From contig JBEKNG010000001.1 of the NCBI GenBank assembly GCA_049523075.1, forward strand, positions 1 to 32,361: a stretch of 32,361 nucleotides of DNA, in the 5' to 3' direction. Position numbers and translations under genes: made by a program. Positions 19,601 through 22,711 of this stretch are shown one piece after another (the first letter of the stretch is position 1; every line of letters begins with the position of its first letter). Origin of the DNA: Paraburkholderia sp. Its GTDB lineage: Bacteria > Pseudomonadota > Gammaproteobacteria > Burkholderiales > Burkholderiaceae. A model generated the notes under the pieces. That model did no database searches and was not told the origin of the DNA. It saw only the letters and a list, made by a program, of their open reading frames with translations.

Positions 19601-20848
19601 CTACCTCGCCGGCGCAAGCCCCGCGATCCGCAAACGCTCAACGCCCTCGGCAAGCGCAAGCACAACCTGTTGCCCGTCCCGTTCGCGGATACTGATCGTC
19701 CGGTCACGCTCATCGCGCGGTCCGACTGCGACGAAAACCGGCACCTGTTTTTCGCGAGCATCGACGATTTTCTTCTCCAGCCGCTCCGGACGATCATCGA
19801 GGACGACCCTGACGCCCGCCTCTTCAAGCGCCTGCACGACCTGCGCGGCATACGCCGCGCTGGCGTCGTTAATCGTCGCCACCGCCACCTGTTCCGGCGC
19901 GAGCCACAATGGCAGCCAGCCTTCGTGATGCTCGAGCAACATCGCGATGAAACGCTCCATACTCCCCAGCACGGCGTGATGAATCATCACTGGCCGCTCG
20001 CGCTCGTTGCGATCGTTGACATACTGTGCGTCGAGCCGCTCCGGCAACACGAAATCGAGTTGGATCGTGCCGCACTGCCAACTCCGTGCCCGGCTATCCA
20101 GCAGATGAAATTCCACTTTGGGACCGTAGAACGCGCCCTCACCCTCGCGCACATCGAACTGCAGTCCCGCCGCAAGCGCAGCTTTGGCCAAGGCCGCTTC
20201 GGCACGGTCCCACACCCCGTCAGCGCCTGCGCGTAGCGCAGGGCGCGTCGCTAGCGCCACCGAGAAAGCGGGAAATCCGAGGTCGGCATAGACGTTACGC
20301 AGCAAATCGCAAAAGCGCCCGACTTCGACCTCGATCTGCGCTTCCGTGCAAAACACATGCGCGTCGTCCTGTACGAACGCGCGCGTGCGCTTGAGCCCTT
20401 CCAGCGAACCGGAAGGTTCATCGCGATGACAGGCGCCGAACTCGCTATAGCGCACCGGTAACTCGCGGTAGGAACGCACGCGCTGATTGAACACCTGCAC
20501 GTGGCACGGACAGCTCATGGGCTTCAGACACAGCGCACGTGCTTCGGACGCGTCATCCGCGTCGCGCTCATCGTTCGCGCTGCCCGAGTCCTGTCCTTCG
20601 GACAACGAATACATGTTGGCGCCGAATTTCTCCCAATGACCGCTGCGTTCCCAGATCGAACGGGCGAGCAGTTGCGGCGTGCGAATTTCGCGGAAGCCCG
20701 CACGCCGCATTCGGCGGCGAATATAGTCTTCCAGCACGCGGTACAGTTCCCAGCCTCGCGGATGCCAGAAGACCATGCCAGGGCCTTCCTCCTGTTGATG
20801 GAAAAGGTCCAGCTTGTTACCCAATACGCGATGATCGATGTCGTTCAC
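19601..20848 (-). CDS. thrS: Threonyl-tRNA synthetase paralog lacking the N-terminal TGS and editing domains (415 aa)
   Basis: Starts directly at DHRVLG...LF (catalytic-domain start); SGHWEKF, KPMSCP, HRDEPSG, QDDAH, GAFYGPK, QCGTIQLDF, MIHHAVLGSMERF, P.WLAP and anticodon-binding domain; GGAG RBS 6 nt before GTG. Confidence 0.93.
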   Translation of the reverse strand: MNDIDHRVLGNKLDLFHQQEEGPGMVFWHPRGWELYRVLEDYIRRRMRRAGFREIRTPQLLARSIWERSGHWEKFGANMYSLSEGQDSGSANDERDADDASEARALCLKPMSCPCHVQVFNQRVRSYRELPVRYSEFGACHRDEPSGSLEGLKRTRAFVQDDAHVFCTEAQIEVEVGRFCDLLRNVYADLGFPAFSVALATRPALRAGADGVWDRAEAALAKAALAAGLQFDVREGEGAFYGPKVEFHLLDSRARSWQCGTIQLDFVLPERLDAQYVNDRNERERPVMIHHAVLGSMERFIAMLLEHHEGWLPLWLAPEQVAVATINDASAAYAAQVVQALEEAGVRVVLDDRPERLEKKIVDAREKQVPVFVAVGPRDERDRTISIRERDGQQVVLALAEGVERLRIAGLAPAR

Positions 20849-20854
20849 AGTACG

Positions 20855-21004
20855 CTCCGTTTGACAAGAGCCATCGACGGAGGGCTATAAACGCCAAGGG
20901 CCCCGTCCGTCTCCGGCGAGGCCCTTGGGGGTTTGCAGCAGCTTCTTGCCTTAGCGCGCGCAACCTCCAGACGACCCGCCCGTGAGGGTGGTCGTCGTGG
21001 TGGT
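20855..21004 (-). promoter_or_regulatory. Ribosome-mediated attenuator (alternative hairpins) upstream of the short thrS
   Basis: GACGACC(20996-20990)/GGTCGTC(20976-20970); GGAGGTTGC(20968-20960)/GCAAACCCCC(20936-20927); CCAAGGGCCTCG(20928-20917)/CGGGGCCCTTGG(20905-20894) capped by CCG-GAGA-CGG; CTCCGT(20882-20877)/ACGGAG SD (20860-20855). Confidence 0.8.
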
Positions 21005-21037
21005 GACAGCCGCGAAGGAAAGCGAATAGAGGTCCAT
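20951..21037 (-). CDS. Thr-rich leader peptide (thrL-like, 28 aa) MDLYSLSFAAVTTTTTTLTGGSSGGCAR
   Basis: Manual translation; codons ACC ACC ACG ACG ACC ACC CTC ACG (7 Thr in 8 codons) about 100 nt upstream of a ThrRS gene and overlapping the hairpins; below the ORF-track size cut-off. Confidence 0.87.
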   Translation of the reverse strand: MDLYSLSFAAVTTTTTTLTGGSSGGCAR

Positions 21038-21043
21038 GTACCG

Positions 21044-21073
21044 ACATTAAACGATTTGACGGCGATACGTCAA
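21044..21073 (-). promoter_or_regulatory. Candidate sigma70 promoter for a leaderless leader-peptide transcript
   Basis: TTGACG (21073-21068) with TTTAAT at 16 nt or TAATGT at 18 nt spacing, 6-8 nt before the leader ATG; no SD precedes that ATG. Confidence 0.55.
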
Positions 21074-21672
21074 TCGATGCCTGTGGGAATTTCGTGCACA
21101 CCACGCGCCGCCGGCTCGACCTCAAACGCCTCGCCGGTGGCAAAAAACGTCCCGCCCGCCACGTAATGACACGTGCGCAATTCCGGGTCATCGCCGAAGT
21201 GCCAGCGGTTGTTCGAGTAGACCCGGCTATCCGCATACGCGGCGACCACTTCGCCGATGATCAGATCGTGGCGCTGGCTATCGTCAGGAATCACCTTGCA
21301 TTCGAGCCACGTTATGCAACCGGCTAGCATCGGCACGTCGATGCGCTGCCCCGCAAACGTCTCGAGGCCGAACGCGGCGAACTTGTCGAGATCGACGCCG
21401 GGCGTGGTGCCGACCGCGAGCGTTTGTCGCGCGAACGCGCGGCTCGGCAATTGCAGCCCGAACACGCCGCTTGCTTCGATCAGTTGCCGCGTGAGCGTGC
21501 GGCTGTCGACCACCACCACGACCTTGGGCGGATTGAAATCCAGCGGCATCGCCCACGACGCCGCCATGACGTTCGTGCGCCCCGCATGGGCGCTGGTGAT
21601 GATGGTGACGGGTCCGTGATTCAGTAACTGCGTAGCCCGTGACAATTCCACTGTTTCTCTGGTGCCTTTCAT
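21070..21672 (-). CDS. Flavin reductase-like (DIM6/NTAB) FMN-binding protein
   Basis: LLNHGPVTIITS, NVMAASWAMPLDFNPP, WLECKV, HDLIIGEVVAA; RBS GAAGGG before ATG 21672. Confidence 0.9.
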   Translation of the reverse strand: MKGTRETVELSRATQLLNHGPVTIITSAHAGRTNVMAASWAMPLDFNPPKVVVVVDSRTLTRQLIEASGVFGLQLPSRAFARQTLAVGTTPGVDLDKFAAFGLETFAGQRIDVPMLAGCITWLECKVIPDDSQRHDLIIGEVVAAYADSRVYSNNRWHFGDDPELRTCHYVAGGTFFATGEAFEVEPAARGVHEIPTGID

Positions 21673-21898
21673 ACGTCCCTTCGTCTTCAAGCGGTGTCTC
21701 GATTCGCGCGGTGTGCCGAGGCATCCGAGCCGCGCCACATGGCATTCTAGCCAGGCGGCGGATACTGGTAGTGGGAGCCCAATCAAGACGCCAGCACATT
21801 TTGACGTGCATCGATGCATGCATACCGCGTGACCGCCTATGATGGGAACATCGCGGCGTGACCGTCACGGCGACCGATAAGCACACGACCTGCTCACC

Positions 21899-22711
21899 AT
21901 GTTCACCCAATACATCGTCCAGTGGGATCTGATACCTGATGGCAACCCGATCGTCACGCACAGCAGTCGCCTGTTGCCAGTGCGTCAGCACGGTGTTGCA
22001 GCCATGCTCAAGATTGCCCAGGGGGTCGAGGAACGCGCCGGCGGCCGGCTGATGGTCTGGTGGAACGGTGTCGGTGCCGCCCGCGTACTTGCGCATGACG
22101 GCGACGCGTTGTTGCTGGAGCGAGCCGAAAACCCGCATTTGCTGGTGGAGATGTCCCGACACGGACAAGACGACGAGGCCGCCAGGATTCTTTGCTCGGC
22201 CGCTGCGCGGCTGCACCGGCCGCGTGACCCGCGGATGACAGAACCGGATCTGTCCGAGCTGGTGCCGCTCGACCGCTGGTTCCGCAGTCTGTGGCCAGCA
22301 GCGCAGCAACACGGCGAACTGCTCGCGCAGTGCGCCAAGGCCGCACGTGAACTACTCGCCGCGCCGGAGGATGTGGTGATCCTGCACGGCGACATCCATC
22401 ATGGCAACGTGCTGGACTTCGGCGCACGTGGCTGGCTCGCGATTGACCCCAAAGGGCTCTATGGCGAGCGCGGCTTCGACTATGCGAATATCTTCTGCAA
22501 CCCCGATCGTGACACGGCGCTCGTGCCCGGCCGGTTTGAGTGGCGCGTCAACCGCGTGGTGCAGGAGGCCGGGCTGGAAAGGCAGCGTTTGCTGCAATGG
22601 ATACTCGCCTGGTCGGGACTATCCGCTGCGTGGATTCTGGAGACCGGCGAAACACCCGACGTGGACTACGATATAGCGCGGCTTGCGGCGGCGGCCTTGC
22701 TGCATGACTAG
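21899..22711 (+). CDS. APH(6)-family aminoglycoside/hydroxyurea resistance kinase (StrB-like)
   Basis: THSSRLLPV, AMLK, WWNGVGAARVLA, LHGDIHHGNVLDFG..GWLAIDPKGL.GERGFDYANIFCNP. Confidence 0.9.
   Translation: MFTQYIVQWDLIPDGNPIVTHSSRLLPVRQHGVAAMLKIAQGVEERAGGRLMVWWNGVGAARVLAHDGDALLLERAENPHLLVEMSRHGQDDEAARILCSAAARLHRPRDPRMTEPDLSELVPLDRWFRSLWPAAQQHGELLAQCAKAARELLAAPEDVVILHGDIHHGNVLDFGARGWLAIDPKGLYGERGFDYANIFCNPDRDTALVPGRFEWRVNRVVQEAGLERQRLLQWILAWSGLSAAWILETGETPDVDYDIARLAAAALLHD

Follow-up and report, generated by a model that had tools for sequence, protein, structure and literature searches.

A reading frame rich in threonine codons, followed by a chain of hairpins and then by a threonyl-tRNA synthetase (ThrRS) gene, raises the question of whether the leader senses the supply of Thr-tRNA through ribosome stalling and, if so, whether it acts on transcription or on translation. 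The locus analyzed here lies in a window of 32,361 nucleotides of a Paraburkholderia sp. (contig JBEKNG010000001.1, positions 1 to 32,361), whose numbering is used throughout. We consider that the Thr-codon leader and the alternative hairpins in front of this spare, editing-less ThrRS probably form a ribosome-stalling switch, with an output that in the window copy is predicted to be mainly translational.

The downstream enzyme

The regulated gene (19601..20848, minus strand) encodes a ThrRS of 415 residues that contains the catalytic and anticodon-binding domains only, with PF00587 and PF03129 as sole Pfam matches and no TGS/editing domain. It covers positions 171-562 of the TIGR00418 model and begins to match E. 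coli ThrRS at residue 243. An earlier note on this DNA had called the gene thrS, which is right as to the enzyme, but it is a spare, editing-less copy and not the housekeeping thrS, since a full-length ThrRS of 635 residues, 50% identical to the short one, is encoded elsewhere in the genome (contig C40). The short form is patchily distributed in the genus, being present in 75 of 201 genomes (E-value cut-off 1e-145, one unpublished genome, G186, being counted), and its named relatives belong to Paraburkholderia, Burkholderia, Inquilinus, Bradyrhizobium and one Steroidobacteraceae MAG. All 17 short ThrRS of a 39-protein tree, midpoint-rooted only, fall on one side of a 100/100 branch. In one record the copy is carried by a conjugative plasmid, where it is annotated as thrS and no leader is listed.

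The catalytic-site motifs of C334, R363 and H385 are kept in 71 of 71 short ThrRS and that of H511 in 70 of 71, and the alignment with the E. coli ThrRS chain agrees with their retention in the window's protein. C334, H385 and H511 are the zinc ligands of ThrRS, and R363 belongs to the same set of residues. The short protein is a ThrRS with intact catalytic motifs, for which aminoacylation of tRNA-Thr is a prediction. As for anticodon recognition, N575 and R583 of E. coli ThrRS contact C34 and A38, according to passages of PMC4756836; their equivalents are changed in all 65 short ThrRS that were scored (of 71), to Pro and Val respectively in the window's protein, and are retained in 85 of 87 full-length enzymes. 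The residue that follows H511 in the short ThrRS is His or Gln, not Arg. With such altered anticodon-loop contacts, tRNA recognition by the short ThrRS may differ.

Threonine accounts for 7 of 415 residues (1.7%) in the short ThrRS versus 14 of 394 (3.6%) in the housekeeping core, and it is lower in the short form for 7 of 8 scored pairs (nine pairs, one without an extracted housekeeping core). Avoidance of Thr as a specific trait was rejected, as Lys, Asn, Tyr and Ile drop equally. Two further observations concern the protein family. The short ThrRS carries an acidic insertion of ~15 residues ahead of the zinc-ligand motif, and a stretch elsewhere in the same genome (C355:1267-1635) resembles the editing-domain region of the housekeeping ThrRS at 29% identity and may encode an editing domain of AlaRS/AlaX type.

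A leader family with a shared hairpin core

The leader is a member of a family defined by a hairpin core (20922-20900 in the window), which lies at most 160 nt from the start codon in 72 of 72 short-ThrRS loci found through their protein (67 distinct leaders); some genomes are represented twice in this set. Outside it stand five further 'short' calls, which are full-length genes that had been truncated or masked, and three loci with too little flank to be used. Near full-length thrS the core was not found in any of 80 loci with up to 3 mismatches (7 were left out for flank). A poly-Thr leader precedes full-length thrS in 2 of the 80, one of them being a diverged member of the hairpin-core family. 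Individual cases are L054:1927-2100 of Azospirillum griseum, a diverged family member upstream of full-length thrS, and L008, where a poly-Thr leader with a U-rich terminator is followed by full-length thrS.

An exact-pattern scan of metagenomes returned at least 120 loci, and ~1000 stretches are estimated for one exact pattern, some of them chance matches. ThrRS lies downstream of the core in at least 37 of the matches listed (at least 120). Pfam assigns 47 other downstream proteins, among the matches listed, to asd (21), the DHDPS family (7), methyltransferases (3), GNAT (3), guanylate-cyclase-like proteins (2), DUF1127 (1) and other families (2, probably chance matches), with 8 left without assignment. 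The leader codons change with the gene: Thr and Lys abound in all 17 de-duplicated leaders of asd, and Lys/Arg are carried by the three leaders read out of four that precede DHDPS-family genes. Sensor codons that fit the aspartate pathway are strong indirect evidence that these leaders would sense tRNA supply. Loci of this kind, with asd behind Thr+Lys leader peptides and the same core or with DHDPS-family genes behind Lys/Arg leaders, include L163, L169, L220, L295-L297, L304 and L306, among others.

The core also occurs, at 1 mismatch, in 13 of 301 genomes of the class of the Bradyrhizobium isolate, before asd, short thrS, methyltransferase and GNAT genes. A second member resides in the genome studied here (contig C115, L289:1230-1400, minus strand), before a DUF2917 gene. 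Its leader of 28 residues has no run of Thr; the hairpin core is compensated, and both a U-rich tract and an anti-SD of 8 bp are present. A protein of 60-67 residues with no Pfam match is repeatedly encoded downstream of the core, after a leader peptide that ends with STLSG (L166, L177, L195, L201, L231 and similar loci), and in L205 and L222 its N-terminus is fused to a cyclase-like domain.

Rfam 15 gives no hit at the gathering threshold in the window nor in 12 relatives, and a search of the window at E up to 10 yields 3 matches in all, each scoring well short of its gathering threshold. The window does not reach the gathering score of Thr_leader (RF00506), and it has no Rfam hit to a T-box riboswitch (Stem I specifier, T-box antiterminator). 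The RNA family is real and conserved, and uncatalogued in Rfam 15.

The leader reading frame and its predicted promoter

The leader ORF (20951..21037, minus strand) encodes 28 residues and contains six Thr codons in a row (21004-20987) and one more at 20983-20981, i.e. a run of cognate codons as seen in thrL-type attenuators. At least 4 Thr are found among the 10 codons preceding GGYGGR in 71 of the 72 protein-found short-ThrRS loci, and the Thr codons of the thrS leaders are ACC or ACG in 215 of 233 instances. Upstream lies a predicted sigma70-type promoter (21044..21073, minus strand; -35 TTGACG 21073-21068, -10-like TAATGT 21049-21044), which a generic promoter scan of the window did not call. 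Among the 36 thrS leaders with an ATG (38 examined), TTGAC/T begins 35-37 nt upstream of that codon in 32, the ATG having been picked partly by this spacing where several in-frame ones exist, and an SD-like word ahead of the ATG is present in none. Given this spacing and the lack of an SD-like word, we infer that transcription starts at or near the leader ATG, yielding a leaderless mRNA.

The flavin-reductase-like gene at 21070-21819, whose stop codon overlaps the predicted -35 box, is a neighbour in 29 of 71 loci. Also close to the locus are an MFS gene and an APH(6)-like gene (21899-22711).

Hairpin segments and their pairing

For 21004-20840 the computed folding energy is -84.1 kcal/mol (z -5.0), a value that none of 200 shuffles reaches. 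The earlier note had proposed six segments, all of which are found on the minus strand where it had placed them, and its OFF state (1:2, 3:4 and 5:6) is the minimum free energy (MFE) structure as drawn. Segment 1 (GACGACC, 20990..20996) lies within the Thr codons, as claimed, and in the MFE, i.e. when ribosome-free, pairs with GGUCGUC at 20976-20970. Segment 2 (20960..20980), which had been put there as well, sits in Gly-Ser-Ser codons; it comprises GGAGGUUGC (20968-20960) and, missed earlier, GGCGGG (20980-20975). Segments 3 and 4 (20894..20936) comprise GCAAACCCCC (20936-20927) and the 3:4 hairpin, in which CCAAGGGCCUCG (20928-20917) pairs with CGGGGCCCUUGG (20905-20894) over a GAGA loop (20913-20910), giving 12 bp, an A bulge and CCG-GAGA-CGG. 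Segment 5 (GCCCUCCGUC, 20876..20885) has as its partner either segment 4 in the ON state or the SD in the OFF state, and segment 6 (20842..20860) holds the ACGGAG SD (20860-20855) and the GUG start codon (20848-20846). Between segments 4 and 5 runs the tail CGUUUAUAG (20885..20893). It is indeed the weak U-tract described before, but its role is not that alone: it forms a 9-bp pairing with CUGUGAACG in the start-codon region (20850-20842), and therefore the OFF hairpin hides the start codon too. Hence, both SD and start codon are paired in the default fold, as in a translational attenuator.

The ON state required revision. The 2:3 helix as originally drawn contains a mismatch and a bulge, overlaps 3:4 by only 2 bases and does not overlap 1:2 at all. 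Its six inner pairs can form while 3:4 and 5:6 stay intact (-40.1), and the whole helix is compatible with 1:2. As written, 2:3 plus 4:5 gives no switch (-21.6 vs -36.9 for 3:4 plus 5:6) and is compatible with 3:4. The mutually exclusive helix is formed by GGCGGG (20980-20975) with CUCGCC (20920-20915); once 2:3 takes it in, 1:2, 2:3 and 3:4 exclude each other as in thrL-type attenuators, and only with this extension could the ON state work, still as a kinetic one. An additional helix, GCCG:UGGC, could prolong 4:5 in the window (-22.5 vs -14.9). We rejected it, as it is incompatible with GGCGGG:CUCGCC and lacks partner specificity (segment 3 with segment 5, z -0.1).

Partner specificity across relatives

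To compare relatives, duplex energies were computed for every segment both with the partner from its own leader and with partners swapped in from other leaders, after de-duplication by 8-mer overlap to 38 thrS leaders (69 in total; 3 dropped for spacers < 44 nt). De-duplication lowers relatedness without removing it, so that the relatives are not independent and the z values should not be read as probabilities. In the 38 thrS leaders z is -2.4 for 1:2, -3.6 for 2:3 as given in the earlier note, -6.8 for lower 3:4, -3.7 for 4:5 and -3.8 for 5:6, with control pairs (6-7) ranging from -0.5 to +2.6. The 1:2 value reaches -6.1 in the all-gene set (52). Twenty stricter all-gene subsets (38-43 leaders) give median values of -4.9, -5.6 and -5.6 for 1:2, 2:3 and lower 3:4, and of -3.7 for 4:5 and -3.9 for 5:6. 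Partner specificity of these five helices is kept in the stricter subsets, and the comparison backs the six-segment layout with its SD-sequestering OFF state.

The pairing of the tail with the start codon scores -2.7 in the thrS leaders and -2.2 in the stricter subsets. Evidence for it is weak, because the pairing of segment 5 with the first part of the coding sequence, one of the controls, reaches -2.5 in the all-gene sets, equal to tail:start. GGCGGG:CCCGCC is nearly invariant (z -1.2), yet it pairs better than shuffled partners do (-16.0 vs -11.2), and the pairs of the lower 3:4 stem vary among G-C, A-U and G-U between leaders. AC stands directly ahead of GGAG in 18 of the 31 GGAG-bearing leaders (38 examined), compared with 9% of 802 genomic GGAG sites before long ORFs, an enrichment expected if CUCCGU pairs with ACGGAG.

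Energetics of the OFF and ON states

Constrained folding with ribosome masks, which the earlier note had put forward as a check, reveals no switch at equilibrium, with P(3:4)=1.00 under all 9 masks. Taken alone, 3:4 is worth -30.6 kcal/mol, and the tail pairing contributes -9.7 kcal/mol to OFF. The best ON fold with 4:5 lies at -50.5 versus -69.2 for OFF (18.7 kcal/mol, about 19, higher), with a barrier of ~16 kcal/mol, and the unconstrained fold retains 3:4 in 33 of 38 leaders. As OFF wins under every mask, ON could only be a metastable, co-transcriptional state, of a kind that is plausible for attenuators.

In prefix folds 2:3 is the first to form. In prefixes with segment 3 out and segment 4 not yet, GGCGG:CCGCC has P > 0.5 in 38 of 38 leaders when a stalled ribosome masks the sequence upstream of GGCGGG, versus 18 of 38 without a ribosome; the window values are 0.94 and 0.00. 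The cost of opening the RBS with 3:4 formed has a median of 13.1 kcal/mol versus 9.0 kcal/mol with a shuffled spacer and is higher in 36 of 38 leaders (window, 15.2 vs 8.6 kcal/mol). Forcing 2:3 cuts the median cost from 9.2 to 5.4 kcal/mol and lowers it in 28 of 38 (window, from 9.8 to 5.5), failing to cut it by at least 0.5 kcal/mol in the other 10. It should be noted that the window MFE with 2:3 forced keeps 5:6 and not 4:5.

Level of the output and competing explanations

The eight nucleotides after the G-C stem of the window copy (UUGGCGUU) contain 4 U, so that a thrL-type U-tract is lacking, and a generic terminator scan of the window called no terminator. Among the 38 thrS leaders the count is at most 4 in 13 and at least 5 in 25, with 6 in 10, the last resembling a thrL-type tract by count. 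There is no trade-off between the strength of the U-tract and that of the OFF (SD) hairpin (rho -0.01), and this comparison lends no support to weak tracts being replaced terminators. As the number of U does not track the strength of the SD hairpin, the family appears to be dual, the window copy standing at the translational end, and termination at 3:4 probably contributes in relatives with U-rich tails. Nus-assisted termination, or Rho polarity that follows on SD sequestration, may likewise play a part. The former description of the output as translational or dual is a fair reading; that translational control would replace termination is a less secure one, given the 10 of 38 relatives with 6 U.

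Of the other explanations, classical transcription attenuation fares best. Here 3:4 would be a terminator aided by NusA/NusG and 2:3 the antiterminator, with 5:6 only tightening a rare read-through message. The stability of 3:4 on its own, the U counts of many thrS leaders, the U-rich tract of the genome's second family member and a distance of 20-45 nt from leader stop to hairpin core all agree with it. The window tract and the missing terminator call do not; moreover, a terminated transcript needs neither 4:5 nor 5:6, yet both are partner-specific, and AC is enriched before GGAG. We therefore regard termination as the sole output as rather unlikely, and favour sequestration of the SD and start codon for the window copy.

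A different proposal concerns the purpose of the switch and not its mechanism, namely that the enzyme is an inhibitor-resistant, ObaO-like ThrRS whose leader senses the loss of Thr-tRNA caused by a drug. Any ThrRS inhibitor would trigger the leader, the patchy occurrence and the plasmid-borne copy are in line with a resistance gene, as are the APH(6)-like and MFS genes nearby, and resistant second copies of synthetases are known from what passages of PMC9437257 describe. The resistance determinant of ObaO, as given in part of PMC11252418, is G463S; the corresponding Ser is missing from the window's short ThrRS, which has Tyr-Gly there, as do 70 of 71 short proteins, one not being scored. In addition, APH(6) is a neighbour in just 1 of 71 loci (flanks of 1-3 kb), and asd and DHDPS-family genes sit behind the same core. 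We regard a resistance function as improbable.

Sequestering an SD invites Rho polarity by itself, and the Thr run is C-rich, so Rho could be admitted either by these codons or by the untranslated thrS message, leaving to the hairpins a role in timing or polarity only. A uORF mechanism of Rho type has been proposed for a Sinorhizobium DUF1127 gene in the part of PMC12218461 considered. Nevertheless, the C-rich run spans only ~25 nt and is paired in 1:2, and Rho would leave five partner-specific helices unexplained, making it a very improbable controller next to a ribosome-stalling switch. Finally, hardly any weight is due to a four-segment, ermC-like arrangement in which 3:4 stays fixed and the SD is freed when UGGAGG of the leader takes up segment 5 (2:5): it spares the breaking of strong 3:4 and is seen in some prefix folds of the window, but the 2:5 helix was rejected for want of partner specificity, with z +0.7 in thrS leaders, the same as shuffled partners, and a median of +0.1 in the stricter subsets.

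Proposed mechanism and its meaning

The ribosome-stalling switch can be described in four steps, in which sequences, conservation, partner specificity and computed energies provide the basis for predicting start site, stalling, timing and level of output. The mRNA would begin at the leader ATG. With ample Thr-tRNA the ribosome would reach the stop codon and cover segment 2, allowing 3:4 to form; if no ribosome loads, 1:2 would form and then 3:4. In either case segment 5 and the tail would fold over the SD and GUG (OFF). With Thr-tRNA in short supply the ribosome would halt at the Thr codons, where it covers segment 1, so that segment 2 could capture segment 3 (GGCGGG:CUCGCC and the inner 2:3 pairs) before segment 4 exits the polymerase. 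Once out, segment 4 would pair with segment 5 and leave the SD exposed (ON). Being metastable and co-transcriptional, ON would relax to OFF after the ribosome clears segment 2.

Tentatively, and with somewhat less than even confidence, we suggest that these leaders may be a portable, uncatalogued six-segment attenuator chassis of Proteobacteria, in which one core would serve as terminator, antiterminator target and anti-anti-SD, and the codons of a leaderless mini-gene would be swapped per gene (Thr for proofreading-less ThrRS, Thr+Lys for asd, Lys/Arg for DHDPS-family genes, other peptides for methyltransferase, GNAT and DUF2917 genes). Lineages would differ in how far the output is transcriptional or translational. 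For thrS, the chassis would call up an error-prone, Thr-poor ThrRS whose anticodon-loop contacts are remodelled and which would sustain translation, possibly with Ser, in Thr starvation.

In Proteobacteria such leaders are known from textbooks for termination, and the locus offers a testable case in which an amino-acid leader peptide would act on translation initiation. A link between a widespread clade of editing-less ThrRS and Thr-tRNA shortage also raises the question of regulated mistranslation, and the leader codons predict the signal for poorly annotated downstream genes.

Comparison with known systems

In its working the switch resembles a ribosome-mediated attenuator with translational or dual output, and by the tests described above it falls outside the thrL, T-box and ermC families. 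The principle of leader-ORF attenuation is already known; the hairpin-core element is uncatalogued. A literature search that covered main texts brought up no paper on this element; Lopatovskaya 2010, Vitreschak 2004 or supplementary tables may already list such leaders, which limits the claim to novelty. Lopatovskaya, Seliverstov and Lyubetsky (2010) reportedly list thrS among genes with predicted attenuation. An RBS-overlapping attenuation mechanism is attributed to that work in a passage of PMC4833913. The portions considered of PMC2965389, PMC13285730, PMC12218461 and PMC6123439 contain no description of the element, and the DUF1127 attenuator in PMC12218461, as partly described there, is set apart by its different, Rho-type mechanism, a distinction of description and not of sequence. 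Attenuation is described in general terms in parts of PMC6123439 and PMC1262725, the latter also presenting, for Actinobacteria, the LEU element, T-boxes that sequester the SD, and leaders predicted upstream of trpS and leuS.

Among established systems are the E. coli attenuators thrL and pheM/pheST, pheST being a synthetase target. E. coli thrL (RF00506) resembles the window leader in its Thr-codon leader and its 1:2/2:3/3:4 logic, whereas the window leader has no Rfam match, Thr only and no Ile run, no leader SD, a weak U-tract, and two extra segments that reach the SD and start codon. The translational attenuators ermC and cat-86 share the predicted freeing of a sequestered SD by a ribosome stalled on the leader ORF, but they use a drug-dependent arrest peptide, a resistance gene and four segments, in contrast with the codon run (tRNA supply), the ThrRS target and the six segments seen here.

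On the side of the enzyme, Anabaena T2 is the model of an inducible, poorly editing second ThrRS (in passages of PMC4787780 and PMC9437257), and like the short ThrRS it accompanies a housekeeping enzyme, one able to edit in trans (PMC4787780). As far as these passages go, T2 differs in being Zur/zinc-controlled and in keeping a degenerate editing domain, whereas the short ThrRS lacks the domain and has a Thr leader.

The closest tested precedent is that of the mycobacterial poly-Cys leaderless attenuators, whose sORFs (Ms5788A) free a sequestered RBS according to part of 10.1101/834739. As described there, the mycobacterial system has a leaderless short ORF with a run of a single amino acid, stalled ribosomes that block RBS-sequestering structures, and several loci that share the logic. 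The leader studied here, predicted to be leaderless, would follow the same scheme. The mycobacterial leaders respond to Cys, in Actinobacteria, and the ribosome itself blocks the sequestering structure; here the amino acid is Thr, the target is a synthetase, and the signal would be passed on by 2:3 and 4:5 over a hairpin that resembles a terminator.
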